Assembly (NCBI GenBank): GCA_937944175.1
Contig: CALDZW010000043.1
Coordinates: forward strand, 1-42,224
Direction: 5' to 3'
Source of the DNA: an uncultured Candidatus Altimarinota bacterium
GTDB lineage: Bacteria; Patescibacteriota; Gracilibacteria; BD1-5; UBA6164
Length of the DNA: 42,224 nt
In this document: positions 16,101-38,414 of the stretch, piece by piece
Numbering within the stretch: the first letter of the stretch is position 1
How the letters are laid out: the number at the start of each line of letters is the position of its first letter
The notes under the pieces: model-generated
Told to the model about the DNA's origin: nothing
The model's database searches: none
What the model saw: only the letters and a program-made list of their open reading frames with translations
Translations under genes and position numbers: made by a program

Positions 16101-16652
16101 AAAGGACAACTAGGTAGTCTAGCTGTTTCAGTTGTTGCTCCTGCTAGTACTGATCTTGAAGGTGAAAGCTCAAATGATCCAATTACTCCAATGGTTACAG
16201 TTCCTGCTGTAATAGGTGAAACAGTTACTATTGTTCCTGCTATAGTTACAGTTGCTGTTGGTGATACTCTTGGAAATAACGACAAATATGCTACTATTGA
16301 CTTTACAGTTGATAAAGGTAATAATGAATTTGATAATGATGATATTGTTATTACTCAAATTGCTATTGAAAATGCTATTGCTGCTCCTTGAATTATTGTA
16401 AGAAATGATGATAATGTTACTGTTGTTAACAATGACACAACAACTACATTACTTCTTAATGATGCTACTGCTAGTGATTACGAAATTAACAATGGAGATT
16501 CATTTGAATTCAAAGTTGGTGAACCTACTACAGCTGGAGGTAACACAGAATTGAGAATCCTTGCTAATGGTGTTTCATATACTCTAGACAATAATACATA
16601 TACAACTAATAATGATGACATCATTAATTTAGGTGAATATGATGATAACTAG
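13155..16652 (+). CDS. Large acidic cell-surface protein with N-terminal SLH-like repeats (S-layer protein candidate)
   Basis: ATG at 13155, TAG at 16650-16652, 1165 aa. All five standard-code fragments in the track (13290, 14445, 14673, 15624, 16191) share this frame. Signal peptide MSNLVKKVTSAMLTSAVVLSAVSSVAGVNA. SLH-like PFADIANTDWACKYAVAALNSGFIAPNTNYRPNDQVSKIEGLKMVM. Pro/Thr linkers flank an Asp-rich block, followed by a long Asp/Thr/Val/Asn-rich region. Confidence 0.75.
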
Positions 16653-16781: not shown

Positions 16782-17807
16782 CTATTTGATATCTATGATT
16801 TCTATGTCAAAATAGAGTTTTTCTCATGCTAATTCATGATTTAAATCAATGATGATTTCTTCTTCTTGTACTTCTTTTATAGTAAAATATCAATATTGAG
16901 TAGGAAGCTTTTCTCATACTTCTAGCTTAATTCAAGCTTCAACAAATGATTGGAGATCCCTCTTTTGCATTGTTTTAGTTTTTTCAACATCATACTCACC
17001 ATATCAGTTCTTTGGTTCAACTTCTAATTTGAAAGCTTCTCATATTTTTTTTCCAACAACTCATTGCTCCCATCATTTGATAACCTGTCATTGACCTATG
17101 ACAAAACTAAATGGTTCTCATCTATTATGACTAGAATCTTTAATACTTCAGTCTTCTAGAGTAAGTGTATAATGAACACTTATAGTATTTCATTCACTAC
17201 TTGTCATGTTCTCCTTTTCTAACTGACTATCAGCTTGTTTTTTATTATATTTCTCAATTATAGCTTTGTTATCTTGTTTGTATTTTTCAAGAGATCAATT
17301 TTTATATTCTTTAATCTTTATTTCAATGATTTTTATTTCTTTTTTTGGTCTATCTTGAGAATCTGTTTTTGCTTTGGCTATTTTATCAACATTGTCTTGT
17401 CACTCTACTACTTCTCAGAACACAGAATGTTTATCATCAAGGTAATTATTGTCATTTTGGTTAATAAAGAACTGACTTCAATTTGTATTTGGTCATGAAT
17501 TAGCCATAGAGAGAGTATATTTATTGTTCCTACACTCAGGATGGAATTCATCTGTAAATTTCTCTCAGTAGATACTTTCACCTCACATTCATGTTCCTGT
17601 AGGATCTCATCATTGGATCATAAAGTTATTAATGATTCTGTGAAAAATAATATCATTATAATATCATTTTTTTGCTAATCCTATAAAATTGGCTGTGGTG
17701 AATGGTGCTTGTTCAGTGAATAGAAGTACCTTTATACTACCATTAGTTGTTTTAATTTTTGCAATAATGTTTCATTCTTGCAATTCTTTTTTATCTTTTT
17801 TCCCCAT
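16782..17807 (-). CDS. Dual-domain peptidyl-prolyl isomerase: N-terminal cyclophilin fused to a C-terminal SlyD-like FKBP
   Basis: ATG is the reverse complement of 17805-17807. Cyclophilin motifs [27 protein letters not shown] and MANSGPNTNGSQFFI. A Lys-rich linker follows. FKBP part: VHYTLTLEDG...FVIGQGQVIKGWEQG...NHELAGEKLYFDIEIIDIK. I checked every in-frame triplet from 17805 to 16785 and found no TAA/TAG. Stop is TAG at 16782-16784. 341 aa. Confidence 0.8.
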
Positions 17808-17837
17808 AATGTATAATTGTTTGTTGTTAATTAAAGA

Positions 17838-17861
17838 AAAGTCTTCCATATGGAAGACTTT
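17838..17861 (-). terminator. Terminator after the FKBP lipoprotein gene
   Basis: Perfect palindrome AAAGTCTTCCATATGGAAGACTTT, followed on the minus strand by TTTTCTTT. Confidence 0.6.
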
Positions 17862-17893
17862 ATTTGTGATTATTTTTGCTATGTAAGTAAGTA

Positions 17894-18679
17894 TTACTTA
17901 ATATCCATAATTTCAATATCAAAAGTTAGTTTTTTCCCAGCAAGTTCATGATTTACATCAACAAGAACTCCTGTAGCAGTTGCTTCTTTAATTTTGAATT
18001 TACCAAATTGAGTTGGAAGTAATTGACCTGGTTCTAATTTAATTCCAGCATCTTCAAATTGTTTTAATTCTGCTTTAGGAACCATCTGTACTCTAGTAGC
18101 ATCATATTCACCATAAGCATCGGCAGGTTCAACTTCTAATTTTTTCTTATCTCAAATTTTCATACCAATAAGTCATTCATCCCATCCTTTAATTACTTGA
18201 CCTTGACCAATAGCAAATTCAAATGGTTGTCCTCTATCAAGTGAAGATTCAACTTTCTCACCATTATCTAGACTTAAAGTGTAATGAACAGCAACAGTAT
18301 TACCAGTCTGGATTGGGTAATTTGATTTATCTGCTGGGACAACAGGAGCAGGAATTGCTGGTTGTTGAGCTGCTAGTTGAGCTGCTGGTTGAGCTGCTGG
18401 TTGAGCTGGTTGTTGAGCTGCTGGTTGAGCTGGTTGTTGAGCTGCTGGTTGAGCTGGTTGTTGAGCTGGTTGTTGAGCTGGTTGTTGAGCTGGTTGTTGA
18501 GCTGGTTGTTGAGCTGCTGGTTGAGCTGCTGGTTGAGCTGCTGGTTGAGCTGCTGGTTGAGCTGCTGGTTGAGCTGCTGGTTGAGCTGCTGGTGTTTCAG
18601 TAGTAGTATTTGTTGCATTTTGGTTACAACTAGCAAGCACTAGTAAAGCAACAAGCATCATAATTTTTTTCATATTCAT
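17894..18679 (-). CDS. FKBP-type (SlyD-like) peptidyl-prolyl isomerase lipoprotein with a Pro/Ala/Gln repeat linker
   Basis: Track fragments 17894-18085 and 18173-18679 share a frame and join through TGA codons. The joining triplets were checked. Lipobox MNMKKIMMLVALLVLASC. (AAQP)/(AQQP) repeats. FKBP core VHYTLSLDNG...FAIGQGQVIKGWDEG...NHELAGKKLTFDIEIMDIK. Stop is TAA at 17894-17896. 261 aa. Confidence 0.85.
18357..18593. repeat. 12-bp tandem repeat, about 19.5 copies, two unit types
   Basis: The units GCTGCTGGTTGA and GCTGGTTGTTGA, plus one GCTGCTAGTTGA variant, were counted directly. They lie in-frame within the lipoprotein linker (AAQP / AQQP). Confidence 0.95.
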
Positions 18680-23102: not shown

Positions 23103-23130
23103 CTAGCAATCATTTGCTAGATATTTTTTT
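23103..23130 (+). terminator. Rho-independent terminator
   Basis: Stem CTAGCAA / TTGCTAG, loop TCAT, tail ATATTTTTTT. Confidence 0.6.
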
Positions 23131-23171
23131 ATATGTTATACTTTTGTATATTATTATATAAAAATATATTT

Positions 23172-23378
23172 ATGATTTCAGAAAACATACATCACTCTGA
23201 GAGTGTTGAGGTAGCATCAAATATTTATAGAAATAGGGTGCTAAAAACTATATATTTTGAAAACTCGCTATTGTGAAGAACTCTAGGTCTGATGGGAGTG
23301 AAATATATGTCAAATTCAGAAAAGGTTGAAGCTCTTTCACTTATCAGATCAAAAAATAATAATTGACGCAAGTTGTAA
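23172..23378 (+). CDS. Small hypothetical protein (68 aa)
   Basis: ATG at 23172, TAA at 23376-23378. The frame is open with TGA=Gly. There is no recognisable motif, so coding status is uncertain. Confidence 0.3.
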
Positions 23379-23509: not shown

Positions 23510-24085
23510 ATGGAAACTTTTTTAAAAAAAGAGATTAAAGCTTGAAAGTTTGAGCTAATAATTGATACTCAAATTTTCTCAAAAGATATTATATTGAAAT
23601 CAGCATTTGTTTACTTGGATCAATGATATTTCTTCTTCAAATATGATAAAGAAAATATTATTTTACAGTTTACTCAAAAAGATTGAGTAGATGTAAGTCC
23701 AGAGATAATTATATGAGAGTTTTCTGATACATTATTAGAGATGACTCTAAGAGATAAACTAGAAAAAGATAATAAAACTATTAGAGAAGCAATAGTTGAA
23801 AAGGCAATTAATGGGCCTTTAGATCAACAAAATTTTGTTACGCTAGATACAGATGCTTGAGAGCAGGTATGAAAACAAACTGAACAAAATCAAATAGATT
23901 TTGACAAAGATATTGATGAAATTCTTAAAGAAATAGAAAATGATCCAGAGCTTCAAATTGATGAGGCAGAAATTGAAAAAATTCTTAAGGAAATAGAAGA
24001 GGAAACAGAGACAGAAGTACAAAAACCAAAATTATCTGCTAATTTGGATGGATTAAAAAAGGCAAAAAATCAGTTTAAAAAATAG
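23510..24085 (+). CDS. hxsD: HxsD-like protein with an acidic repeat-containing C-terminal extension
   Basis: The frame was checked codon by codon. ATG at 23510, TAG at 24083-24085, 191 aa. The N-terminal domain (FSKDIILKSAFVYLDQGYFFF...FSDTLLEMTLRDKLEKDNKTIREAIVEKAI) matches my memory of the HxsD signature LLNDYxLRE. The tail contains the duplicated EILKEIEND / KILKEIEEE. Confidence 0.5.
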
Positions 24086-24116
24086 GCATAAAAATATACA
24101 AGATAATAATGAAGTA

Positions 24117-24302
24117 ATGAAAAAAGATTTCACAGTAGATTTTTGAATATATAATGAAGAAATATTGAAACAAGCTATTTCAGATTTTTCAGAAGTTGGA
24201 GAAATTGAGCTAAGAAAAAATGTTATCACTATTTCTGGAGAAATAGATAGTGAAATTGAAGAAATTTTTAATGAACTTATGAATTATATCCTCAGTCTAT
24301 AA
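24117..24302 (+). CDS. Small HxsD-N-terminal-like protein (61 aa)
   Basis: ATG at 24117, TAA at 24300-24302. It shares a pattern with the preceding gene (YNEEILKQAISDFSEVGEIE...IFNELMNYILSL) and stops at the position of the LLxxxxLR motif. Confidence 0.4.
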
Positions 24303-24311
24303 AAAATATAT

Positions 24312-25766
24312 ATGCTAGATTTAGAAAAAATTCAAAATACCAATACTACTAAAATAGGGTTTTTTAGGTTTAAAAAATTTGATGACAATCAGTATTTGCT
24401 TACAAATGATGCTTGAAAATTCATATTCCTAAGCAATGCAGATTTTGAAATATTTGTAAGTTGAGAAAGTCTTGAGGCTCTTGCTGATTATGGTGATTTA
24501 ATAAAAAAAGGATTCATAAAAAATGATGATTATCAAGCAAAAATGACTTGATCAGTTGCTTTAAAAAATCACTTTGTCTGAGTGTGACCAACTCTTCATA
24601 TGATTGTTACTACGCTTAGATGTAATCATAAATGTAAATATTGTCATGCAGCAGTTGCTCCAATGACAGCAACAGAGTTTGATATGTCAAAAGAAACAGC
24701 AAAAAAAGTAGTTGATACCATTTTCTTTACTAGCTCACCAAGTTTAACTATTGAATTTCAGTGAGGTGAGTCACTTGTGAACTATGAAGTGGTTCAGTAC
24801 ATTACAGAGTATGCAAAAGCAAAAGCACAACATCTCAAGAAAAATCTTCAATTAAATTTAGTGACAAATCTTACATTAATGACTGAAGAAAAGCTCACTT
24901 GGTTACTTGATAATTGAGTTGATATATGTACTAGTCTTGATGGAGATGAGATCACTCATAATAATAATAGGTCTGGATATCAAGACTGAAATTCATTTGA
25001 AACAGTTACTTACTGGCTAAAAAGGGTTAGTGAAGAAAAACAAAAAAGAAATATGTGAAAAATATGAGCACTTTTGACTGTGACAAAAGAAACTATCCCA
25101 AAATTTAAAGAAATTATTGATCAATATGTTGGTTTATGACTTGACTGAATTTTTCTTCGTTGGTTAAATCCATATGGCTTTGCAGCAACTCAAAAAGAAG
25201 ATCTTGCATATGATTCAGATGAATGGATTAAATTTTATAAAAACTCACTTGATTACATTATAGAATTAAATAAAAAATGAACAGTATTTAGAGAACACAT
25301 TACATGAATATATTTAATGAAGATTTTTAACTGAAAAGATCCAGCGTTTATGGACATTAGAAGTCCAAGCTGAATTGCTGTTGGTTGAGTGGCTTATAAT
25401 TATGATGGCAATATATATGCCAGTGATGAATCAAGAATGTTGTGAAGAATGTGAGATGATAGTTTTCTTATGTGTGAAGCTTGAGAGGATGGTAAAGAAA
25501 ATTATAAGAATATGATCAATTCTGATATTACTAAGATTGCAGTTCAATCAAGTACACTAGATTGACTTCCAGGTTATAATGATCATGTGTATAAAACCTA
25601 TCTATGAGTGGATATAATACACAACTATAAAACAGCAGGATCATTGTATAATCCAATTCAAAAAGATGAAAAGATGCAAATGCAGATAGCTATTCTTGAT
25701 TATATTTTTGAGAAACTGCAAGATCCAGAAGATGAAAAAATATTAATGAGTTGGATTTGAAAGTAG
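24312..25766 (+). CDS. hxsB: Radical SAM enzyme, HxsB-like peptide maturase with N-terminal RRE-like domain
   Basis: All 484 codons were checked with no TAA/TAG. CNHKCKYC cluster motif at about residue 105 and a FQGGESL glycine-rich motif. The ~95-aa N-terminal domain (YLLTNDAGKFIFLSNADFEIFVSG...LIKKGFI) looks like a peptide-recognition element. The C-terminus has a SPASM-like spacing but lacks the cysteines. Stop is TAG at 25764-25766. Confidence 0.7.
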
Positions 25767-25826
25767 ACTTGAAAAATACTGATTAAAGAATAGTATAGTT
25801 ATATCTTATTAAAATTTTACTAAAGT

Positions 25827-26219
25827 ATGAGTGATAAAAAGAAGAAAATTTTTCCAAAGATTAAGAAAAAATTAAAGTCTTTCTTGACAGACGAAAGTGG
25901 GAAAATCACGAAAAAGGATGCTTTGGGGTTGAGTGCAGCAGGTCTTTTGCTGACTTGAGCTAATGACGCAAGTGCTGCAGTGACAACTTGGACAGTCCCT
26001 GCAGGGTTGCCTTTTCCAAACCCAGCAGATCCAAATAACCATAATAATTCAGTTGCTCCTACATATATGACTGTATCATGACCAGCTACCTGCTCACATG
26101 CAAGTGGGATAGTTAACTGACATTATAGTGCTGTTCCCAATGTTAACCAAACTCAAACACAATATGAACTTCATGGTCATGGAAGTCATGGAAGTCATGG
26201 AAGTCATGGGCAATGGTAA
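25827..26219 (+). CDS. hxsA: His-Xaa-Ser repeat peptide (HxsA-like putative precursor/substrate), 130 aa
   Basis: ATG at 25827, TAA at 26217-26219. Lys-rich N-terminus, a hydrophobic segment ALGLSAAGLLLTGA, then NDASAA (AXA-like). The C-terminal half contains SHASG, GHYSA and ends in HGHGSHGSHGSHGQW. Confidence 0.65.
26172..26210 (+). repeat. 9-bp in-frame tandem repeat encoding (His-Gly-Ser)3
   Basis: The unit CATGGAAGT occurs three times, perfectly, at 26178-26204. It is flanked by the degenerate copies CATGGT and CATGGG. Confidence 0.95.
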
Positions 26220-26242
26220 TTTAAACTTAATATAGATATATT

Positions 26243-26995
26243 ATGAATGGAAAATTATTATTATCAATAATTGTGAATATCATTTTTGTTTTTGCAATAG
26301 CATACTATTTCACTAATAATCAAGAAGTATATACCTTAACCTCTGAAGTTAAGAAGAATGAATGAACTACCAATATTATTTGATCTAATGCTGCTCAGCC
26401 TTTTTTACAACAACCTGACAATAATGTGCAAGCGGGTAATAATATGCAAAAAAGTATAATTAGTGCAAAGTCAAACACTGATAAATGTGATTTCTCAGTG
26501 AGTTTACAAAATGATTTTTGAGACAATTGATTGAACCAAGAGTTACAAGAAAAGACAAAGAAGATATTAGAATTATCAATTGAAAAATGAGAGGATTATA
26601 GATTCTATAGGGCTTTTCATTCTTGAGAAAAGTGTGAAAAGCTTTTTGAAGATTACATCTTAGAAAACCTATGTAATATTATTGTTAATAATAAACAAAA
26701 TTCTTATACTAAGCTTGTCTGATATGATGAGTATGAAGATAATAAAGAGAAAAATAAAGTTTTATGAGTGGCAAGCAAGTTCTTATGAAATGATGATAAT
26801 ATATGTGATAAAGTATGTGAAGAATCTTACAATGATTTTTTGATTATTAAGGAGAATAATATTAATACAAAAGATATTTTTAATAAAAGTATCTCTGAAA
26901 TTACAACATTACTAATTAATTGATCTATTTCTAAAGATGAATTGATAACAATTGCTTCAAAACAGTGCATTAAAAATAGTTCAAAAAAACAATAA
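26243..26995 (+). CDS. Membrane-anchored hypothetical protein (250 aa)
   Basis: The frame was checked codon by codon. ATG at 26243, TAA at 26993-26995. N-terminal TM segment LLLSIIVNIIFVFAIAYYF. The extracytoplasmic part has 7 Cys. No recognisable domain. Confidence 0.55.
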
Positions 26996-26997
26996 TT

Positions 26998-28215
26998 ATG
27001 TGAAAGAATAATGAGAAATTGTTAAATAGCATATCAATTTACATATATCAGAATGAGCAAGATGATTTTTTTATGAGTAACATAGAGATGTTATCTATAC
27101 AATCCTTTTTAACTCAAGAATGTCCAAATTCTAGAAAAAAAGTATTTTTTATAAATACGGGGTTTTTATTATCTAAAATATTGTTAGAAGAGAATATTGA
27201 GTGATATTTGAGGTTAATGGAGTTAATCAAAAAGAAGCTAATAACAAGTAATATTTGATGATTAAAAATAATCTTTGATTACCTCCCCTTAAGATTTTTT
27301 TGAAAAAGCTTTTTAAAAAATAATTATTATTATTTAAACTTTGAAAACAATTTTTGAATAGAATCTTTTTATAATGTAAAGAAAAAAACACACCAAAAAA
27401 GAGTTTCTATCCAGGTTTTAGTCTCTAGATTAGACTTTTTAGATGATTTATTTTCATCAATTGTAAATCAATCTATAGAGGTAAAAGAGATATTCATTTT
27501 TGTGAATTTTAAAAATAAAGAGGATATTGTTTTATTTGAGCTTAAATTTTTAAATTATATGAATTTTTCAGACTGCAATATCAAATTGTCTTATTCCATA
27601 GAAGAGTTTTCTGAATCAAAAGCAAGAATCTTTATGCCCAGAGAATCAGAATGTAGATATATTCTACCCTTAGATGATGATGACTTTTTAGATGAAAATT
27701 GTGTATCTGAGGTGGAAAAAGTCTTAAATAATTATTGAGATTTTTCATTAATAAAAGGGTTATATACATGAATAAGAAGTAAAGACAATTTTGAGAATAG
27801 AAGAAAAAATACAGAAGAGATAGGTATAAAAGAGAAAGTAGATTATGAGCTTGATAGAAGAAAATGACGTTTCCTTGTTCCCAAAAATATAGCATCAGTT
27901 GATCAATTATATGTCTATAATTATGATTTATTAGAGTACTATTGAATAACAACACATAAAGAAAGCTTTAATGATCCATGAATAGAAATAGAGCTATTCT
28001 TAAAATCTGAGGAAATATGATGATTTTTTTTAATTGAGAAAGAATTGTATTTTAAACGATCTTGGGAATCACAAGTTACTAATAATTTTTCTTTTCAGAA
28101 GGAGTTATTTAACTATCTATTCAATATCTTAAGTAAGACCTTGATATATAGAAATATAGATAAGTATGTTAAAATAGATTTATTTCCATACATTAAAATT
28201 GATCCAAAACATTAG
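26998..28215 (+). CDS. Glycosyltransferase family 2-like protein (405 aa) with an extra degenerate GT-A-like N-terminal module
   Basis: ATG at 26998, TAG at 28213-28215. VSIQVLVSRLDFLDDLFSSIVNQS...IFIFVN and the DXD-type LDDDDFLDE fit a GT-A fold. Residues about 10-60 (ISIYIYQNEQDDFFMSNIEMLSIQSF...VFFINTG) repeat the same pattern. Confidence 0.5.
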
Positions 28216-28220
28216 CAATT

Positions 28221-29156
28221 ATGAAAAAAATAGTGGTCACATGAGGACTAGGTTTTATAGGAAGTTATTTTGTTGAAAAGGCATTAAAAGAGGGCTTCCA
28301 TATAATTAATATAGATAAAAATATTTATAAGAAAAGAACAAATACAACATATGCAATGAATAAAAAGTATCAATTATGGGAAAATGATATTCTTGATATA
28401 AAAGAGATCCCAAGTGATGTTGACTTTGTAGTACATTTTGCAGCTGAGACAAGTGTTGATGAGTCAATCAATAGTCCAGAAAAATTTATTGATTCAAACA
28501 TTAATTGAACTTTACATTTATTACAACTATTTATTCAACATGTCTCTTTGGAGAAGGCAAAGTTTATTTATATTTCTACTGATGAAGTTTATTGAGAGAT
28601 TCCAGTAGGAATGTTCAATGAAGAGAGTCCAATGATTGCATGAAATACATATGCAGCTACTAAGATAGCTGCTGAACAGCTGGTTTTTGCATTCCATAAA
28701 ACTTATTGAATAAGGTTCAATATATGTAGGAGCTCAAATATTTATTGATACTGACAAAGTGATGATAAGCTCATACCAAAGGTTATTAAATTTGCATGAA
28801 AAAAGCAAAAGATTTGAGTTCATGGATCATGACTTTATTCACGAGAGTGGACATTTGCTTGAGATAATGTGGAATGAATCTTTATTGTAATGATAAAGGG
28901 TAGTGAAAATGAGATATACAATATTTCAACAAATGAGGAATTCACAAATTTGGAGATCATAAAAAAAGTATTAAAAATAACATGACTCCCAGAGAACTTT
29001 TATGTAAATGTTGAAAACAGAAAGTGACAAGATTGCAGGTATTCAGTTGAATCAAAAAAGATAAGATTATTATGATGGAGGCAGACAATGACTGTTGATA
29101 GGTATTTAGACTTATATTTTAACAAATCTTCCAAAGGTGAAAGTTGAATTTTATAA
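28221..29156 (+). CDS. rfbB: dTDP-glucose 4,6-dehydratase-like NDP-sugar dehydratase (SDR family)
   Basis: Rossmann motif VTGGLGFIGSYF, then HFAAETSVDES, ISTDEVYGE and the YAATK catalytic Tyr/Lys. Stop is TAA at 29154-29156. 311 aa. Confidence 0.8.
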
Positions 29157-30270
29157 ACATAATATATGAATCATTGATGTTTTTAACCTTTTAAAAGTAT
29201 TAAAAGGTATTTTTCTGACTACATGAAAGACTGTAGATAAATTTGAAAGAAAATTATCTTTATATACTTGAAATAAATATTCAATCTGAATGAAATCATG
29301 TACAATAGCACTTTTTTTATCATTAAAGTACTTTAATATCTGAAAATGAGATGAGGTTATTACTACTCCATTATCATTTGTTTCTACAGCAAACTCTATT
29401 GAACATACATGAGCAAAACCAGTTTTTGTTGATGTTGATAAAAAAACATGAAATATTGATCTTAAGAAGATTGAATGAAAAATTACATCTAAAACTAAGG
29501 CAATAATAGTAGTACATCTATATTGACAAATGGTTGATATTGTTAAACTAAAATGAATAACTGATAAATACAACATAAAAATTATTGAAGACTCAGCACA
29601 CTGTGTTGAGTGAGAAAACAATTGAATCAGACCATGAAATATATCAAACTGTGCATGCTTTTCATTTTCGACAATAAAGAATATAACAAGTTGAGAATGA
29701 GGAGCAATAAGTACGAATGATAAAAGTATGAGTGACTGGCTTAAAAAGGCTAGATTACACTGAATTTCTAAATCAGCAGCTCAAAGGTATGGACTTACTT
29801 ATGAACATTATGATATGGAATTTTTATGATATAAGTCAAATATGACAAATATTGATGCATCATTATTATTAAATCAAATTGATAATATTGATAAACTTTT
29901 ATTAAAAAGAGAAAGGATATCTCAAAAGTATAATGATTGATTCAAAAATAATGAAAATATAGGTTACCCAGATGTATTACTAAATTGAGTACATGCAAGA
30001 CATTTATATACTATATTGATAAAAGATTCTTGATTAAGAGACACATATATATATAAGCTTCAGAAAGCATGAATATGAGTTGCAGTTAACTTTAGAACTA
30101 TTCATCTGATGTCTTATTATAAAAAGAAGTATAGTTATAAAAGAGGGGATTTTCCTAATGCTGAATTTTATTGAGATGCTACTATATCTATTCCCCTTTA
30201 CCCAAAATTAAGAAACAGTGAAATAAACTATATTATTAAAATAATAAATAGTATTAATTATGCAACATAA
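29137..30270 (+). CDS. DegT/DnrJ/EryC1/StrS-family PLP-dependent sugar aminotransferase
   Basis: The only plausible start is GTG at 29137 (the frame opens after TAG at 29107), overlapping rfbB by 20 nt. Motifs: TTGKTVDKFERKLSLYTG, EVITTPLSFVSTANSI, IEDSAHCVEG, and the Lys motif FSFSTIKNITSGEGGAI. Stop is TAA at 30268-30270. Confidence 0.8.
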
Positions 30271-31189
30271 AAGTGTGTTTTTAGAATTAACAGATAACTG
30301 CAACCTTTCCTGTGAGTATTGTAATAAACATTATGGTTTTGAATACATTGATTTGGCATTATTTGAAAATGTTGTGAGACAGGTTGCTGTCAATAAAAAG
30401 ATACTTGTAAGAATGCTATGTCTATGGTGATGAGAGCCATTCTTACACCCAAAAATATGAGATATATTCCAAATTTTAAAAACATTTTTTCAAAATTATG
30501 TAGGAAGTTTTGACATCATTATTAATACAAACTGACTTTTATTAAGAAAAAATAGGGATTTGTTAGACAGCTTGGTAGAAGAGCTAGCAAATATAAACTT
30601 TATAGTTTATGTCTCTTTAGATGGAATATGAAAGGAAGGAAATATTAACCGAGCTATTACAAATAAGCAATATTACTGAATTGTTGATTCTGTCAAATAT
30701 CTGAAAAATAAAAAATTAGAAAATTTAACTGTGAAGGTAAGCTCAGTTTTATCTTTTAAGAACTCTCCATTATCTCAGCTAAGATCTTTTGTTTCTTACT
30801 TTGACTCATTAGGTGTTGATATCAATTTTTGTTTTCAAGAGTTTGTTTCTTGAAAAGAAAAAAAAATAAAAAAAGATGAACTTAAATTGCTATTGAAGAA
30901 ATACATTTTTTTGAAGAAGAAGAAAATTGACGTGTATTTAGAATCAAAAAATGAGTTTAATGATAATTATAGAATCAATGTTAAAGGAGTTGTTAATAAA
31001 CATATTGATGGTAGTTTTGATTGATCTGATAAATTTATTATATCTAAAGAATGAGACATTAAGAATATTGAAAATGAAACAAGTATAGATATAACAAATG
31101 ATGAGATATGGTGAATAATGTATGCTAAAAAAGATTATATTAAATTGATAAGCATTATATATAATTCAACTTATAAAGACACGGGATAG
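30260..31189 (+). CDS. Radical SAM enzyme (309 aa, no C-terminal Cys cluster)
   Basis: The ATG at 30260 overlaps the aminotransferase gene by 11 nt. All codons were checked. CNLSCEYC at residues 14-21, then WGGEPFLHP and SLDG. Stop is TAG at 31187-31189. Confidence 0.8.
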
Positions 31190-31378
31190 GTTGAGTTACA
31201 CATAATGACATTTCTATAAAGAATGCCAGGACATTCTTCTTGCATTACTCTAATTGTAATAAAACAACTTATTGAGAGGAGTATATGTAAGGATTAGTGT
31301 ATGAAACGATTATAGAGTGGACAATTAATGATAAAATAATATAATTTTTTCAATTATATTATATCAAAAAGTAAAATT

Positions 31379-32794
31379 ATGAAAGGGTTCTCAATACAAC
31401 ATACTAAAATGCTCTTATTCTTGATTAACTTTTTTGATGGTATTGGCTTAGCTTTTAATTACCCATGGTACATATTTTATAACCAAAATTATAGTAGTTC
31501 AGAGGTGAACTCTTTTTGGGAGAGGCATAATCAAACTAATCACCCAACTCAATTATATTTACACACGCTGTTTTGTGAAACCAAGTGTCATTACTGTAAT
31601 TGTATATCTTATGTTGATAATGATCAAGGGAACTTTGTCAAATATAAATATTTCTTATTTCAAGAGATAGATAATTATAGTAAGATTATTACTAAAGATT
31701 TAGATACTCTTTATTTTTGATGAGGAACCTTCTCACTTTGGAATGAACAAGATATGGAAGAGATATTAATAAAAATTAAGAAAAGTTTTAATTTTAAGAA
31801 GAATTACACCTGGATGGTTGAACTACACCCTGAGTCAACTAATAGAAAGAAACTTGAAATATTGAAGAAGTATTGAGTCACAAATGTCATGATAGGGTTA
31901 CAGTCTCTTAACAAAAAAGTGAGTGAAAAGAATAATCGACCATATAATGAATGAAAAATTATTGAAGTAATTGATGACATTGTTGATCTGAGGTTTAATA
32001 AAGTATGCTTTGATATAATGTATAATTTGCCTTATGAAACCTATGAAGATTTAGAAGAGAATCTCTGTAACTTAAAAAAAATAGGTGAAAGAATATCTTG
32101 AAAAATTAATATGAATCTTGAGATAAATAAATGGAATATGTCATATAATGTCCCATTTTACAAGATATGAATTAATGATAATTTTTCTAAACTACAGGAC
32201 TTCTTAGAGGACTTTTTTAGATTGCTAGACAGAAAGACAGCATTGATAAAGTCATTTAAAGAAAAATCACTAAATAGTTTATTTGGTCATAATAGAGAAG
32301 AGATTGATTCAAGAAAAAAGAATAATTCTGCCATATTAGGGATTGGCTATTGAGCAATATCTTATGTCCCCTGAATTGCTACATATAGTTTTGATTTTTC
32401 ATATAAGAAGATTAAAAGTTTTTATGGAAATACGAAGTTTAAATGACATAATCTTTCAGAGCAAGATAACATAAACTTTTCTTTTTTAAATAATATAAGG
32501 TCTTGATTTGATCCTGTAATTATGCAATCAGCACTTTCATCTATTTCTCAAGAAGCATTGAGACATTTTAAAAAAATACAAAAAAGTCTTAAATTATCTA
32601 GTGATTGAAAAATAACAGCACAACTTGAAAATGATTTACTCCTTCATCAAATGTCTCTTTGTTTTTATTCATATTCAAAAAGAAAGGATGTTATGAAGTG
32701 ACTGGTTAAAAAGTGGTTTTCTTTAGGTAATAGTGTAGAAGACCTTGAAGATAATATTGATAATTATTTAGAATTATATTATAAGAAAGATTAG
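31379..32794 (+). CDS. HemN-like radical SAM enzyme (coproporphyrinogen III oxidase-like / class C methyltransferase-like), 471 aa
   Basis: All codons were checked. LYLHTLFCETKCHYCNC (the HemN-type CxxxCxxCxC), then YFGGGTFS and VMIGLQSLN. Long C-terminal domain. Stop is TAG at 32792-32794. Confidence 0.75.
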
Positions 32795-32849
32795 ATATGC
32801 TTTTTATGTAGGGCTCAGAGTATGTTTATATATGTAATATATAGAGATT

Positions 32850-33758
32850 ATGAAACGATTAGAATTTCACATAACATATTCTTGTAATCATGCTTGCATA
32901 TTTTGTAGTGAGGATGATAGGATGATGGAATACTCAAAAAATCCTCTAACTGAGATCCAAGTTCGTTCAATACTTGTTGATAGAGCAAAAAAGTGATATA
33001 ATCATGTTAACTTTACTTGAGGAGAACCAACACTCTTCCCAAACTTCTTAAAGCTTTTGAGTTTTACTAAAAAGATTGGTTATAAAATTTATGTATGAAC
33101 AAATGGCACCTCATTTGTATCTAAATCCTTCTCAAAAGAAGCTTTAAAATATATTGACGAGCTATCTTTATCAATTCATTGGTTTAATCAAATTAGCTGT
33201 AAAGCTCAAACAGGGCACAAAAAACATTTTGACCTTTTTAAGATTATTGCAAAGAATATTAAAACTTATAACCAGAAGAATTTTTTCTTCTCTAATGTTG
33301 TAATAAATAAATCTAATTATATGGATACACTAAAGATTATTAAATTTGTTAAAGAATCTGATTATCCAGTAGCACAAGTACTTATCTCAAATATAGCACC
33401 TGAATGATTGGCTGACCATAATTTTAAAGACCTAGCATTCTCTCTTGATGATTTTAAATTAGATATACCTGATATAGTAACATATACATCTCAGAATAAT
33501 ATTATCTTGAGGTTCTTTGGTCTTCCAACATGTATTCTTTGAAGGGATTATGAAGATTACTCTAATGATGGTCATTGGCAAGAAAGGCACACAATAGAAA
33601 GATATACAAATGATCGTGGTAATATTGTTCTTAAAGATACTTACAGTCCTGATAATTCACGTAAGAGGACTTTTGTGAGAAAGTGTCAGACTTGTGAGTG
33701 GAGATTGAATCCCTGTACTTGAGTATTTAAAAAATATTTAGATTTCTATGAATTTTAG
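32850..33758 (+). CDS. Radical SAM enzyme with a C-terminal 4-Cys (twitch / partial SPASM-like) motif, 302 aa
   Basis: CNHACIFC at residues 12-19 and FTGGEPTLFP. C-terminal GLPTCILG ... CQTCEWRLNPCTGVF. Stop is TAG at 33756-33758. Confidence 0.8.
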
Positions 33759-33825
33759 ATTAATAATTTATCTATTACATAGAGATTACTATTGCTAATA
33801 AGATACTCAAATAGTTTAATTTTTC

Positions 33826-34755
33826 ATGAAAATAATGGAACTTATCTTTATACTTACATACGAATGTAACTTTCGTTGTACCTACTGTGATATTGACAAA
33901 AGAGATGAAAGTATATCTCAAAAACTATTACAAGATTCAATTGTTTTTTTGGAGAAAAATAATTTTCCGATTAAAAAGGTGAAATTTTTTTGAGGAGAAC
34001 CACTATTAAAAAAGGATTATATTAAATACATTATAGCTAACTTCCCTAAAAGTTATAATCCAGACTTTTACATTACATCAAATTCAACTTTGATTGAAGA
34101 TCAATTTATTGCTTTTATTGAGGACAATAATGTTAAATTGACATTTAGTTTAGATGGTGATATTGAAACTACATCAGTGAATAGATTACTTCAAAACTGA
34201 AAAAATCTCTCACAGGAAATCATAAAAAACTCAGAGAAATATTCAAATCTGATAAGAGTAAATCAAGTTATCACTTCAAAGAATGCAAAGGATTTTTTTA
34301 AGAATTTCTTGTTTATATATAATTTATGAGTTACTAGGTTTAACTTTCTTCCAGAATATTATGCAGAATGGTCAAAAGAGGGGTTGGGGAATTTAAAAAG
34401 ATGATTTCATGAAATAAAAAGATTTTATAATGAAGGGAATAGATTTGAGCTTATAAATCTTGAAAATTACTCAAAAGTAGCATTTTTTAATTTAGGAATA
34501 ATTATTGATACAGATTGAAAGATATATGGGACGAATCTTATTCTCTCTTGAATCTTTGAAAAATATAAGAAGGACTTAGTTATCGGAGACATTCATAATT
34601 GATTAAATTATGACATACATGATAAAGAATTTAATCTCCATTATCAGTCTAAGATAAATAGATTTATTAATAAAGAATACTCCCCAGTAATCTTAAAGTC
34701 TGTTAAGTATGTAGATTTGATATTAAATGACTTTTGTTATAAATTTCACAATTAA
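33826..34755 (+). CDS. Radical SAM enzyme (309 aa, Cys-less SPASM-like tail)
   Basis: All codons were checked. CNFRCTYC at residues 14-21, then FFGGEPLL and SLDG. The C-terminal IIIDTDGKIYGTNL resembles the SPASM beta-hairpin but has no Cys. Stop is TAA at 34753-34755. Confidence 0.8.
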
Positions 34756-34838
34756 ATAAACCAGGAGAATAAAGATTATGAGAATATCCTTCATAACTGT
34801 TTAGCTACAGAATATCTTATTAATCATAGTATCTTAAC

Positions 34839-36119
34839 ATGGAAAATAAAAAAAAGTTAATATTGAAAGAGGCAACTCAGAAAGAAAATCGTATATGGGT
34901 AAGAATTGCATCTGCTTGTAATAACATATGTATTTTTTGCCTTGATAGTGATGCTCAGAATTGAACCTTCCCTGAAGAAGAGAAAATTAAACATGAAATT
35001 AGAGTATGATATATAAAGGGATATGAGAATAGAATTATTATATCTTGATGAGAAGCTAGTATTAATCCTAAATTCTCAAATTATATAGCATATGCTAAGG
35101 AGGTCTGATATAATAAGATTCAAACTGTTACAAATTGAAATATGTTTTTTTCAGAAGAATTTTGTAAAAAAGTTTTTAAAGCATGATTAGAGGAGGTAAC
35201 TTTCTCGTTTCATGGTCATAACTCTACTCTTCATGATTACTTAGTAGCAACTCCATGAGCATTTAAGAAATCTCTCAAGGGATTGATTTATGTTAAGAAA
35301 AACTTCCCAGATATAATTGTGAATATTGACATTGTGGTGAATAAGGTAAATGTAAAGTACCTTCATGATATTGTTAGTTTTTTTATGAAGTTGTGAGTGT
35401 ATGAATATGATATCTTACAAATAGTACCATTTTGAAGAGGATTTTCAAAATATAAAAAACAACTTTTCTATAATATAGAAGATTATTCACAAGAATTGAC
35501 AAATACATGGAAACTGAGCACAATTAATTGAATGTATATGTGGACAAACAGGTTCCCAGCTGAGGCATTTGAATGATATGAAGATTTGATTCAAGATCCT
35601 AGGAAAGTTAAATGAGAGGTTATGTGAGAATGAATCAATATGTTTTCTAAGTTTATAAAAACTAAGTGATTATCTAAGCCAAATTGTTTTTGAGATGCTT
35701 GCAATGTTTGCTTCATTAAACAATATTGTCATAATTTTATAAATAATGTAAATAGGCCTAGTCTTAATTACAACAAAGATAATACCTTCATTCTGAGATG
35801 AGAAGAGTTTCCAAGTGAGGTATATAAAAAATATTGAGAATCTAAAGAAAATTTTTTAGAGTTTTTGCATTGAAAAAAGATGAAAAATATTAAATTAATC
35901 AATGTTCCAAAGTGTTTATGATGAGAATGACTTTTTGAGAAGTACAATGATTTAAATCCTGAGTATGAAATAAATGATTATACTAAAAAGTACATTAAGA
36001 ATTTATATAGAAAAAAATCTTTAAGATGTAATAAATGCAGATATAATGAAACGTGTGAGTGAATTTGAATTAATTTTATAAGAAGTTATTGATTCAATAT
36101 TTTAAAACCAATTATTTAA
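34839..36119 (+). CDS. Radical SAM enzyme with two C-terminal Cys clusters (SPASM-like), 426 aa
   Basis: All codons were checked. CNNICIFC, ISGGEASINP and FSFHGHNSTLHD. Auxiliary motifs CFGDACNVCFIKQYC and VPKCLGG...CNKCRYNETCEGI. Stop is TAA at 36117-36119. Confidence 0.8.
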
Positions 36120-36121
36120 AT

Positions 36122-37066
36122 ATGGCTAATATATGATACATTCAAGTAAATAGACATTGCAACAATGCATGCCATTTTTGTAGTAATCCAAGCAATTGAA
36201 ATAACATTTCTTATGAGAGATGATTAGAATTAATTGATGATTTCATTGAAAAGAAATATCTTGGTATCATCTTTACTTGATGAGAGCCGACATTATCATC
36301 AGATTTAGCTGAATGGATAGAATATGCTAATAAAAAAGGAATAGAGAATAGAATGATATCTAATGGAATGATGTGCTCTAGTAAAGATTATATCAGTAAG
36401 TTATCTAAATCTTGATTGAAATTGATTCATTTTTCTGTGTATTCTTGCTATGAGAAGATTCATGATTTTCTAACGGATACTCCTTGATCTTGGAAGAAGC
36501 TTATGATGAGTATCACTAATGCTCTGAATGCTTGAATAAGAGTGCAAATCAATACAGTTATAAACCATTATAGTGAAAATCATTTAGATGAAACAGTAAG
36601 GTTTATTACTAGGACTTTCCCTCCAATTAAACATTTTGTATGGAACAACTTAGACCCTTTAATGATGAGGAAAACAAAAACTGCAATTTCTACATTGCCA
36701 AATTTTAGAATTTTTAAGGATCCATTAGCTAGAGCAATGAAATTTTTAGAAGCGTCATGAAGAACATTTAGAGTTGAAAGAGTCCCCTTATGTTATATAG
36801 AATGATTTGAGTGGGCATCAACTGAAACAAGAAAAATTGTTAAGGATGAGGAAAGAATTGTTCACTTTTTGGATGAAAGAGAAACTGTGAGACAATATTG
36901 AAAATATTGGGAGCATGACAAAAATAAGGATTGTAAGCAATGTAGCCTTAATAGTATTTGTGCTTGAATTTACAAAAAAGACGATTATTTCAGTAATGTA
37001 AATGTTTACCCTCAAAAGCTTTCTCAAGAGAGGAAAAATATAATTATAAAAAAAATTTTAAAATAG
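36122..37066 (+). CDS. Radical SAM enzyme with a C-terminal 4-Cys (twitch / partial SPASM-like) motif, 314 aa
   Basis: The ATG lies 2 nt after the previous stop. CNNACHFC, FTGGEPTLS and HFSVYSCYEKIHD. C-terminal VPLCYIEG ... CKQCSLNSICAGIY. Stop is TAG at 37064-37066. Confidence 0.8.
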
Positions 37067-38414
37067 ATTGTAAAGTTAAAAGTTTTACTATAAGTAGATT
37101 ACTGCTTATTATGGTAATGATGAATCCTGAAATTATGTATGATCAATAAGGAGATGTTGATAAGAGCTTTATTTGATTTTTTGCTTTGAAATTGGGCGTA
37201 TTTTTTTTTTGAATTCTGGTTATTAAGAGGTGTGCTTGTTTTAGATTCAATACTTCATCTTTTGTTAATGAGTTAGACACTCAAAATATATACTCATTCT
37301 TTATCTTTTCAGTGAGATCTTCTTCATGTCAAAGAATTGAGATAAGATCTTTTTTATCTATATAGTCACCTTCTTCAAGGTCAATAATATTCTTATAATA
37401 ACATTCTCAAATCCCAAAGGTTATTTTGTAACTATAGATTATTATTTTTATAAACACATATATTCATAAATACAATGTAAAGATTCTGAATAATAATGCA
37501 CTCATTTCATAAAAGTGATTGATGAGTTGATAACTTACAAAACTCATAAGCACTATTATAAGTATTCATAATAATATATCTGAAACACGTGCAGGATCTA
37601 TGCTATATGTTTGAGAAATATATTTTTTTATTCTCATAGTAATTGTACGGCATATATAGAGTGATCAGATAAATACTCAAATTAGTAACAATACTAAATA
37701 TATATTATATTTCTGAATAATATCTGAAAACATATTGAGAGTCTGAGTGTTTTCTAGTATAGAATTGAAAAGGTATATTCGAGCTAGTCGTATACTTACA
37801 AAAATGATAAGAAAAATAATAATGAATGTTATTATGATTCTACATGTGTTTCATCACTTGTTTTGTTTGTAAACATTCCATGTGTCAGTGACATCAGTGC
37901 GAACATTAGTGAACAGACTGTTTCTATATTGAGAATTGAAAAGAATTTTCCCAAACCAAAACCAAAAAAAATATCCTAACAAATAAGCAATAGTAACAAG
38001 TGCTATATTACCAATAAAAGGAATCACACCAATATAAGGAATAAATAAACTCAATACCAATAAATACTTAGCATCTCAAGCAGCCCATATTCAAAAATAA
38101 TATAATGCAAAGCTTACAACAAGAGTTAATAAGATTTGAATTGAGAAAAAGAGAGGATTAATGTCAGAAAGTCCTGGAAGATATTCTGGAGCTATTCACA
38201 AAAATAAAATCCCCCACCAAAAAGGAATGAGCATCAATAAAAGCCCTAAATATTTATTAGGGATTTTTTTAGTTTTAATATCTGAAACTACTATCTTGTA
38301 GTTGAAATATAAGAATGGAATAAGAAGAATGTATGTGAAAACTTCCAAGAATACAGTTGTTAGTATAATATAATTTATATACAAGCATTGTAGAAGTATA
38401 GATCTTTTTTGCAA
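37044..38414 (-). CDS. A24-family (prepilin peptidase-like) aspartic membrane peptidase with a large internal insertion, 456 aa
   Basis: Track fragments 38196-38414 and 37854-38060 share a frame. I checked every triplet down to TAA (reverse complement of 37044-37046). First Asp motif VVSDIKTKKIPN, second AAGDAKYLLVL, C-terminal PFGP-like STSPYGSYIISGF. The start is TTG (38412-38414) or a nearby ATT. Confidence 0.65.

Follow-up and report, generated by a model that had tools for sequence, protein, structure and literature searches.

A radical SAM-rich His-Xaa-Ser gene cluster, probably an expanded HXS system, in a Gracilibacteria genome

The window discussed here is the whole stretch of DNA that was analyzed, 42,224 nucleotides (contig CALDZW010000043.1 of assembly GCA_937944175.1) from an uncultured Candidatus Altimarinota bacterium of the Gracilibacteria. 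It carries a cluster of 14 co-directional plus-strand genes, g01 to g14 (23510-37066), in which members of the His-Xaa-Ser (Hxs) protein families stand beside a small HxS-repeat protein, three sugar genes, and a total of seven radical S-adenosylmethionine (SAM) enzymes. We consider it reasonably likely that this cluster is an expanded, Gracilibacteria-type HXS system, namely an operon that matures and exports the small HxS-repeat protein. The reading starts from what was observed in the window and in related genomes: the gene content, the placement of the proteins in families, the synteny, a conserved core at the left and right ends of the arrays, and the co-variation of the tail of the repeat protein with the enzymes encoded downstream. 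The enlarged and variable multi-radical SAM version of Hxs found across the Gracilibacteria is new here and previously undescribed. In the literature, no publication was found on Hxs in Gracilibacteria, on multi-radical SAM Hxs, or on the NCBIfam variants HxsA3, HxsC4, and HxsD_rel.

The Hxs families reportedly go back to an in silico definition by Haft and Basu in 2011. In Escherichia coli, HXS is an anti-phage system in which a secreted HxsA, matured by the radical SAM enzymes, blocks the entry of phage DNA (Li et al., Nat Commun 2026, PMC13128918), and a first-pass annotation of the window, which had described Hxs as a set of families with no characterized product, is outdated on this point. 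The genes of the described system are ordered D-B-C-A, more than 99.8% of systems have four genes, and 99.7% of them are found in Pseudomonadota (PMC13128918). The E. coli HxsA is processed at its N-terminus and gains 8 Da on its last repeat, both of which need HxsB, HxsC, and HxsD, and a complex of HxsC and HxsD is formed (PMC13128918). The cluster in the window would extend this system, reported to be 99.7% proteobacterial, into the Candidate Phyla Radiation (CPR), in a larger and differently organized form.

Layout and genetic code of the cluster

The window has a guanine plus cytosine (GC) content of 29% and can be read only with genetic code 25, since its open reading frames (ORFs) of at least 80 aa add up to 16,223 aa with translation table 25 and to 1,500 aa with table 11. 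Gene calls made with table 25 give the 14 genes, separated from g01 to g14 by 31, 9, 60, 23, 2, 5, -20, -11, 189, 55, 67, 83, and 2 nt; these coordinates match exactly those of the first-pass annotation. Within the cluster, TGA is the commonest glycine codon (169 TGA versus 87 GGN). In all seven radical SAM enzymes it encodes the first glycine of the GGE motif that binds SAM, and in the dehydratase g07 the first glycine of the Rossmann TGxxGxxG motif. The cluster is therefore native to an organism that reads TGA as glycine, which had also been the earlier view.

The public protein collection (entries P0001, P0121, and P0126) translates the contig with TGA as tryptophan (code 4), and its copy of g03 carries 23 Gly-to-Trp substitutions. 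This translation leads to poorer hidden Markov model (HMM) scores and poorer structure prediction for the whole lineage.

No terminator-like site was found between the cluster genes, and one lies just upstream (23103-23120). The only long gap of the cluster is the 189-nt one between g09 and g10 (31190-31378), in which no ORF is evident. It holds the best plus-strand sigma-70-like match (TGGACA-16-TATAAT, 31318-31345, 11/12) and a 16-nt direct repeat (31280-31312), and could serve as a promoter or regulatory region inside the cluster. The promoter scan as a whole was not above chance (122 sites found versus 113.7 +/- 10.9 expected in this region of 27% GC), so the operon structure is read from gene spacing only. 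By that spacing the cluster forms an operon, possibly with two transcription units parted at the 189-nt gap.

The Hxs core and the HxS-repeat protein

The cluster was compared with about 40 related loci (here numbered with the letter L), seven of them found through HxsB and 35 through a search with an alignment of HxsA-like proteins, with one genome per species; the genes were called again with code 25 and clustered. All 35 loci derived from HxsA come from Gracilibacteria, “Peribacteria,” or Patescibacteria metagenome-assembled genomes, including the complete genomes CP017714 and CP042461.

The first three genes form the left part of the core. The HxsD protein g01 (23510-24085; 191 aa, with an acidic C-terminal tail) passes the HxsD model TIGR03976 marginally, at 51.3 bits for a cutoff of 50. 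Homologues of it are tagged with the precomputed Pfam family PF27806 (HxsD), and its orthologues, at 50-70% identity, come first in the array wherever the left end of a related locus is visible. The mini HxsD-like protein g02 (24117-24302; 61 aa) scores 37.7 bits with NF038315 (HxsD_rel), just under the cutoff of 41, and belongs to an orthologue group of 33 that always lies between HxsD and HxsB. The radical SAM maturase g03 (24312-25766; 484 aa) is the clearest member, reaching 482.9 bits with the HxsB model TIGR03978 (cutoff 370) over profile positions 3-466 of 466. Its HxsB homologues, 60-82% identical, make up more than 120 protein clusters, several of which are already named HxsB in Ca. 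Gracilibacteria. It contains five cysteines in all (positions 104, 108, 111, 206, and 388), and the alignment columns of the auxiliary Fe-S cluster are occupied by S353, A356, and S371. Cysteine is found in these columns in 10-11 of 32 HxsB sequences of the lineage and is missing from about two thirds of them.

The HxsA-like precursor g04 (25827-26219; 130 aa) starts 60 nt downstream of HxsB. A basic conserved leader, FLTDESGKITKKDALG, is followed by a short hydrophobic stretch that closes in an A-x-A site and by a variable middle; the C-terminal half holds a conserved HASGIVNGHYS motif, then tandem His-Xaa-Ser repeats in the form of HGS units, and a final QW. The C-terminus reads HGHGSHGSHGSHGQW, and its DNA is a perfect tandem repeat of 9 nt x 3.8 (26176-26209). 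With candidate cleavage points after A50 or after G34, the candidate peptide spans AVTTWT...HGSHGSHGSHGQW, and the product is probably some 80 aa long. Among curated models, HxsA3 (NF038309) matches the N-terminus only, with 24.4 bits for a cutoff of 65. Of the placements that the first-pass annotation had made in the Hxs families, those of g01 and g03 are borne out by curated models and that of g04 by its repeats, no curated HxsA model being reached.

An aligned set of 42 distinct HxsA-like sequences (43 in the orthologue group) shares the leader FLTDESGKITKKDALG[IL]SAG, an (A/V)-x-A site, and the motif H[ASG]SG[IV]VNGH. Most loci encode a protein of 116-175 aa, and a call of 271 aa in L042 extends into masked sequence. 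The C-terminal HxS run has 1-15 consecutive units across the homologues, and the 3' repeat region of HxsA enters N-masked sequence in three public assemblies (L029, L042, and L023). Together with the perfect 9-nt repeat, this suggests that the repeat copy number varies by slippage.

The gene after g04 encodes g05 (26243-26995; 250 aa), a fast-evolving protein with an N-terminal membrane anchor and no family match in NCBIfam or Pfam. In most related loci the position after HxsA is taken by a protein of ~210-350 aa with an N-terminal hydrophobic helix and no detectable sequence similarity.

Arrays across the Gracilibacteria

In almost every locus with a visible left end, the left core of HxsD, mini-HxsD, HxsB, and HxsA-like genes is found in this order. 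It is followed by a membrane-anchored protein in the g05 position or by a g11-type radical SAM enzyme and then by an array of variable content, in which the radical SAM genes number from 3 to at least 11. The right end is conserved as well. The radical SAM enzyme g13 has 796 homologues, the top 120 of which are 60-72% identical to it, a degree similar to that of the top HxsB matches. At least 12 of them lie on contigs equal in length to contigs among the HxsB matches, and three were confirmed to lie on the same record as HxsB. In three genomes walked from g13, the right end consists of g13 (63-71% identity), g14 (61-74%), an optional radical SAM gene, and, on the opposite strand, a gene for an A24-like membrane protein. 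In each of the five arrays traced as far as a g13-type end (the window, L007/L026, L046, L047, and L048), the last genes are g13, g14, and the A24-like gene; g14 orthologues come directly after g13 in L046-L048 and adjoin the A24-like gene in L007. The arrays thus have conserved cores on the left and right, with a hypervariable middle between them.

The same families in the same relative order recur in dozens of related genomes, which settles that the genes are not adjacent by chance. The first-pass annotation had not recognized the architecture from any described peptide or glycan pathway; it is no one-off, the multi-radical SAM layout being lineage-wide in Gracilibacteria, and the copy in the window, with 7 radical SAM genes in 13.5 kb, is a compact mosaic of modules (g09/HemN-like/g11, g11/g12, and g13/g14/A24-like) that are found elsewhere. 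A genome of 1.49 Mb has an array of ~26 kb with at least 10 radical SAM genes (L006 and L046), and L024 has at least 11 in about 12 kb. Other arrays encode Asn-synthase-like proteins, 2-oxoglutarate (2OG)-Fe(II) oxygenases, PP-loop ATPases, and methyltransferases. Arrays so dense in radical SAM genes, in minimal genomes, imply strong selection for chemically elaborate protein modification.

The sequence class of the C-terminal tail of HxsA varies together with the set of enzymes encoded downstream. The tail GGWC goes with R31, f32 (Asn-synthase-like), f33 (2OG oxygenase), and R19 in all four loci with visible downstream genes, CGRGCW goes with H94, R35, R36, R95, and g14 in both of its loci, and HCSxMC goes with R89, again in two of two. 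The tail HGS(R)W is accompanied by R7 in 9 of 15 loci, and R7 appears in no other classified tail class. The window belongs to the class HG(Q/A)W, in which HemN-like and/or g11-type radical SAM enzymes are present in all five loci and the full trio of g09, HemN-like, and g11 in three of them. Such co-variation is expected if the variable enzymes act on the C-terminus of HxsA. The match between tail class and enzymes is also a natural “lookup table” that links new radical SAM chemistries to motifs.

Several of the arrays have features of their own. In L048 (4243-7945; JAQTWP010000002.1, which continues L030), two nitrogenase-like Oxidored_nitro genes, a NifH/BchL-type ATPase gene, and a methyltransferase gene lie between radical SAM genes, and in L013 a NifH-like gene directly follows the HxsA copy; a nitrogenase-like reductase is unusual within a protein-maturation array. 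L047 (10001-20405, also seen in L011) has two Hxs-type arrays in tandem. The first runs from HxsD, mini-HxsD, HxsB, and HxsA to g13, g14, and the A24-like gene, and the second, which has no HxsD or HxsB of its own, comprises a separate HxsA (130 aa, GGWC tail), a g05-like gene, R31/f32/f33/R19, and a second A24-like gene. In L006 (9485-14300), toxin-antitoxin-like genes (DUF4160/DUF2442, NTase_sub_bind/Polbeta, and HicA) interrupt the core on either side of HxsB, separating it from mini-HxsD and from HxsA, which shows that the Hxs core tolerates insertions. The “hypervariation” reported in a Gracilibacterium concerns a PTD-repeat surface gene (PMC6851277), and it was ruled out as a description of the same locus.

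The radical SAM enzymes

All seven radical SAM proteins predicted by the first-pass annotation (g03 and g09 to g14) have the CxxxCxxC motif and score 47-86 bits with PF04055, above the gathering threshold (GA) of 29.5. Three of them are HxsC-like. The first, g11 (32850-33758; 302 aa), has HxsC (TIGR03977) as its top NCBIfam match, at 79.1 bits for a cutoff of 267.9. It belongs to an orthologue group of 37, often present in several tandem copies (up to six), and its orthologues in L045 and L046 are 64-67% identical. Seven cysteines are invariant in the family, those of CxxxCxxC together with C228, C279, C282, and C289, the latter forming a four-Cys auxiliary-cluster motif. The HxsC4-like g13 (34839-36119; 426 aa) matches NF038332 (HxsC4) best, with 132.3 bits for a cutoff of 500, and TIGR03977 with 83.0 bits; its C-terminus has both CX4CX2CX5C and CX2CX5C. 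The last gene, g14 (36122-37066; 314 aa, C-terminal CX2CX5C), reaches 105.1 bits with TIGR03977 for the same cutoff of 267.9. A C-terminal CX2CX5-6C auxiliary-cluster motif is thus found in each of g11, g13, and g14. The first-pass annotation had seen no obvious HxsC, whereas HxsC or HxsC4 is the best NCBIfam match of all three, though far below the cutoffs.

The other three are of different types. The radical SAM enzyme g09 (30260-31189; 309 aa, no auxiliary-cluster motif) has 59 bits with PF04055 and generic NCBIfam matches only (~63 bits). Its orthologues in L006, L024, and L043-L045, at 43-46% identity, are always followed by HemN-like and g11-type radical SAM genes. A role for g09 as a DesII-like sugar enzyme, which its overlap with the DegT gene could bring to mind, was ruled out, since the orthologues travel with HemN-like and g11 genes in arrays that lack sugar genes. 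The HemN-like (class C-type) enzyme g10 (31379-32794; 471 aa, CxxxCxxCxC) has 82 bits with PF04055, and its top matches (STM4012, HemN, and HemW, 102-118 bits) are all under cutoff; its superfamily has 15 members across the arrays. The short PapB/HxsB-like enzyme g12 (33826-34755; 309 aa, without SPASM cysteines) matches PapB with 113 bits and HxsB with 73 bits, both under cutoff, and belongs to an orthologue group of 16, whose 64-71% identical members in L045 and L046 adjoin g11 orthologues.

The cutoff of a housekeeping radical SAM equivalog was reached by none of the enzymes (MoaA 63 versus 284 bits, HemN 112 versus 325, HemW 102 versus 205, and QueE 28 versus 260-300), in keeping with the maturase-type character proposed in the first-pass annotation. 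PADLOC returned only superfamily-level noise (pVip and Cas4), and version 2 of PADLOC has no HXS model.

A convergent A24-like gene at the array end

A further gene, missed by the first-pass annotation, lies on the minus strand (37044-38348) and overlaps g14 convergently by 23 nt. It encodes a polytopic membrane protein of 434 aa, a putative homologue of the A24 (prepilin-type) peptidases. Two Asp motifs characterize the A24 prepilin-type peptidases; extension to the TTG start at 38348 regains the first of them, SDIKTKKIPNKYL (SDIKTKKIPNK), and the second is present as AAGDAKY. The match to Pfam PF01478 covers profile positions 10-103 of 104 with 24.4 bits, under the GA of 26.5, and seven of eight members of the family match this model (best E 1e-7). 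D92 is invariant in the family, the first Asp is substituted in the L043 copy, and a profile of the family found no relative among PDB sequences.

The gene ends the array in the window and in about 12 other genomes (L001/39, L004/5, L007/26, L011, L014, L022, L033, and L046-48), and in L043 it is divergent and directly adjoins HxsA. It was also considered as a mere conserved neighbor. This is disfavored, since the upstream flanks vary among loci while the gene stays with the array, and since it adjoins HxsA in L043. The first-pass annotation had found no leader protease in the cluster, a statement that is questionable in view of this homologue, which may act on HxsA.

The sugar module

The genes g06 to g08 would provide and attach a sugar. 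A clear case is g08 (29137-30270; GTG start, 20-nt overlap with g07), a predicted DegT/PseC-type nucleoside diphosphate (NDP)-4-keto-sugar aminotransferase with 343 bits for Pfam PF01041 (cutoff 19.8); its best equivalog, PseC, gives 317 bits, short of 423.5. The product of g07 (28221-29156) is, by its domain matches, clearly an NDP-sugar dehydratase or epimerase of the extended short-chain dehydrogenase/reductase (SDR) type. It is RmlB-like, a predicted NDP-hexose 4,6-dehydratase, has 175 bits with GDP_Man_Dehyd and 164 bits with Epimerase in Pfam, and reaches 258 bits with TIGR01181 (RmlB), short of the cutoff of 365.1. The third, g06 (26998-28215; 405 aa), is a putative GT-A (GT2-like) glycosyltransferase with an invariant LPLDDDDFL motif, whose 20.8 bits with PF00535 lie under the GA of 23.3. 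A profile of its family found nothing informative among PDB sequences, and an AlphaFold2 model from a five-sequence alignment translated with TGA as tryptophan was unusable (predicted local distance difference test score of 36). Of the sugar module named in the first-pass annotation, the dehydratase and the DegT enzyme are thus clear and the GT2 call is weak. No acetyl- or formyltransferase was found alongside the sugar genes in the cluster.

The module is rare. Homologues of g06 amount to four clusters, at 56% identity, among 5.8 billion proteins. On the three contigs examined (L043-L045, which represent two of the four clusters) they are all inside Hxs-type arrays, ordered as follows: the divergent A24-like gene, an HxsA-like gene, a g05-like gene, g06, an extra radical SAM gene, g07 (56% identity), g08 (70%), g09 (46%), a HemN-like radical SAM gene, g11-type radical SAM genes that include a 67% orthologue of g11, and g12 (71%). 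In this second lineage, g06-g09, g11, and g12 are 46-71% identical to those of the window, and the g10-like protein is only 25% identical to g10. The same order in the Hxs array of a second lineage and the tight junctions from g05 to g09 (2, 5, -20, and -11 nt) argue that the sugar module, though rare, is an accessory integral to the array rather than a separate operon. The first-pass annotation had placed the sugar module and the distal radical SAM genes in one system as its working hypothesis, which agrees with the order kept from the g05-like gene to g12.

Comparison with known systems

The cluster shares several features with the HXS of E. coli and Klebsiella: HxsD and HxsB pass curated models, and the genes are co-directional in a single operon. 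The substrate, like that of Pseudomonadota systems, has C-terminal His-Xaa-Ser repeats and is secreted and N-terminally processed (both predicted here), and the HxsC-type radical SAM partners have a C-terminal auxiliary-cluster motif. There are also differences. Unlike the order D-B-C-A, the cluster runs HxsD, an extra mini-HxsD, HxsB, HxsA, g05, three sugar genes, six radical SAM genes, and the convergent A24-like gene, and it has seven radical SAM genes (3 to at least 11 in its relatives) where HXS has two. Its HxsC-like genes are multiplied and far under the HxsC cutoff, the auxiliary cysteines of HxsB are lost, and its HxsA differs from that of E. coli in lacking a peptidoglycan-binding domain, in its leader, and in the HASGIVNGHYS motif. 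An A24-type homologue and a membrane-anchored partner are linked to the Gracilibacteria array, the middle of which is hypervariable and can contain genes of the sugar, oxygenase, amidotransferase, or nitrogenase-like kind. The host is also of a different kind, a monoderm code-25 CPR group instead of Pseudomonadota. With its distant HxsC genes, no curated HxsA match, a different gene order, and no auxiliary cluster in HxsB, the cluster is therefore not a member of the described four-gene system. The NCBIfam variant models HxsA3, HxsC4, and HxsD_rel are the best for the N-terminus of g04, for g13, and for g02, all below cutoff, and their existence means that curators had already seen non-canonical Hxs variants.

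The cluster can also be compared with the radical SAM/SPASM RiPPs (ribosomally synthesized peptides with post-translational modifications), such as ranthipeptides (PapB), sactipeptides, and SCIFF peptides (PMC9062424). It shares their logic of a leader and a core, the C-terminus of the precursor co-varies with the enzymes, and PapB-, SCIFF-, or CcpM-like models are the second-tier matches of g03 and g12. Unlike the short Cys-rich peptides of these pathways, the substrate here is a protein of 116-175 aa, and unlike sporadic biosynthetic gene clusters, the locus looks vertically inherited and lineage-wide. RiPP recognition element (RRE), ABC transporter, and C39 protease domains were not detected in the cluster proteins with NCBIfam and Pfam. 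Glycocin and protein O-/S-glycosylation modules of the bacillosamine or viosamine type likewise have a 4,6-dehydratase, a DegT aminotransferase, and a GT-A-like enzyme beside the gene of a secreted peptide. The likeness ends with g06, which falls short of the GT2 threshold and for which no relative of known function could be detected, and with the missing acetyl-/formyltransferase and nucleotidyltransferase.

A proposed pathway

The chemical steps, the target of glycosylation, the processing protease, and the physiological role that we infer for the expanded HXS system are as follows. The precursor g04 would be made with its basic leader, its hydrophobic export segment, and its C-terminal HASGIVNGHYS motif and HGS repeats. 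By analogy with the E. coli system, HxsB (g03) and the HxsD-type partners g01 and g02 would carry out the core maturation. The HxsC-like enzymes g11, g13, and g14, along with g09, g10, and g12, could then add further radical modifications, such as cross-links or carbon additions, to the C-terminal region. The enzymes g07 and g08 may produce an NDP-4-amino-4,6-dideoxyhexose, which g06 would probably attach to HxsA or g05. The A-x-A site might be where the leader is cut, or else the A24-type homologue might cut behind the invariant Gly34, and the matured product is expected to act at the cell envelope. Natural variants, such as an HxsB without its auxiliary cluster and multiplied HxsC paralogues, offer a way into the +8 Da chemistry of HxsB and HxsC.

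A number of observations weigh against this reading. The HxsC-type radical SAM proteins are present and yet, by their scores, below cutoff (79-105 bits versus 268). In NCBIfam and Pfam, g04 reaches no curated HxsA model and has neither a Pfam domain nor a peptidoglycan-binding domain. Judged from its residues, g03 has lost the cysteines of the auxiliary Fe-S cluster; in E. coli, mutation of this cluster in HxsB reduces, and does not abolish, the processing of HxsA (PMC13128918). The assignment of g06 as a glycosyltransferase is weak, its score being below threshold and without structural confirmation, and no NDP-sugar nucleotidyltransferase was found in the cluster. The co-variation of tails and enzymes is confounded by shared ancestry. 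Finally, the locus looks ubiquitous and stable in position within subclades and lacks mobility genes, unlike a sporadic defense island, and for these reasons an anti-phage role may not transfer from E. coli.

Possible roles and alternative readings

By analogy with E. coli, the most likely role of the expanded HXS system would be to bar incoming phage or foreign DNA at the envelope, and if so, the diversified decoration would reflect an arms race. The array is in any case a testable candidate for how Gracilibacteria handle phage, foreign DNA, or host contact at the envelope. A bolder reading, which we hold tentatively as a real possibility short of an expectation, is that the arrays form a vertically inherited “protein-decoration supercluster,” in which the cassette between the Hxs core and the conserved end (an HxsC4-like and an HxsC-like radical SAM enzyme and an A24-type peptidase) is matched to the tail class of the HxS protein and in which the product is a chemically hyper-diversified envelope protein, the main determinant of identity or defense of these epibiotic cells. 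The cassette would have as many as 10 or more radical SAM enzymes and at times sugar, oxygenase, amidotransferase, or even NifH/NifDK-type components. If this is true, the supercluster would be a radical SAM-based counterpart of O-antigen diversity.

Somewhat doubtful, and still a serious contender, is that the product is a core envelope or host-interaction factor, a vertically inherited and lineage-essential surface component of ultra-small epibiotic or predatory cells that serves in host or prey recognition, adhesion, a pilus-associated function, or metal capture by its His-rich tail; variable decoration would then mirror host specificity. The high conservation of both HxsB (more than 120 clusters at 60-82%) and g13 (60-72% for its top 120) fits such a component, as does their presence in all four complete or near-complete genomes met (CP017714, CP042461, OZ245922, and the 1.49-Mb contig). 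The neighbors are stable in subclades, with atpD-atpC upstream in seven distinct loci (eight were fetched, two of which are the same CP017714 site) and a DHH gene in five, and no integrase or transposase is present. The link to an A24 homologue of prepilin-peptidase type and the size of the arrays, which reach about 26 kb in a genome of 1.5 Mb, point in the same direction. Against it, the ubiquity is that of the genomes met here and not of an unbiased genome set, and anti-phage defense is the one role for which an Hxs system offers experimental precedent (PMC13128918). This precedent is the only reason for which defense is ranked slightly ahead of host interaction.

It is far less probable that the cluster is made of two independent units, an Hxs unit (g01-g05) and a separate glycan, S-layer, or cell-wall operon comprising the sugar genes of g06-g14, with or without the distal radical SAM genes. 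The idea draws on the absence of g06-g08 from about 40 other Hxs arrays, on the 189-nt gap before g10 with its promoter-like site, and on the predicted NDP-amino-deoxy sugar, which is typical of surface glycans. It conflicts with the g06 homologues examined, all of which follow HxsA and a g05-like gene in Hxs arrays and keep the order with g09-g12, and with the tight sugar-gene junctions. In addition, g09/g10/g11 and g11/g12/g13/g14/A24-like recur in arrays without sugar genes, so the distal radical SAM genes belong to Hxs arrays and are not glycan genes. The independent distal glycan operon, which the first-pass annotation had kept as its second hypothesis, is disfavored on the same grounds, as arrays devoid of sugar genes also close with orthologues of g13, g14, and the A24-like gene. 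The last alternative, a chance grouping of housekeeping radical SAM genes (MoaA, QueE, HemN/HemW, or RNA modification) beside a degenerate Hxs remnant, can point to low-scoring generic matches (MoaA, HemN, HemW, NirJ, and viperin models, and the pVip models of PADLOC) and is effectively refuted by scores 3-10 times under the curated cutoffs, by the synteny with Hxs genes across many genomes, and by tandem arrays of up to six g11-type genes, which are unlike housekeeping genes.

Other genes in the window

An ORF of 81 aa on the plus strand (23133-23378), between the hairpin at 23103-23120 and HxsD, is a candidate gene, with a 42%-identical counterpart in the same position only in L004/L005. Further upstream, on the minus strand (16782-18679), the translations show two neighboring peptidyl-prolyl isomerase genes. 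One encodes a cyclophilin-FKBP fusion of 355 aa, and the other a lipoprotein-like FKBP of 261 aa with a long (PAAQ/QPAQ)n linker. The plus-strand gene at 13155-16652 encodes, as read from its translation, an acidic secreted protein of 1165 aa that has a signal peptide, a linker rich in Pro/Thr, and repeated beta-rich segments and is probably an S-layer or surface protein.

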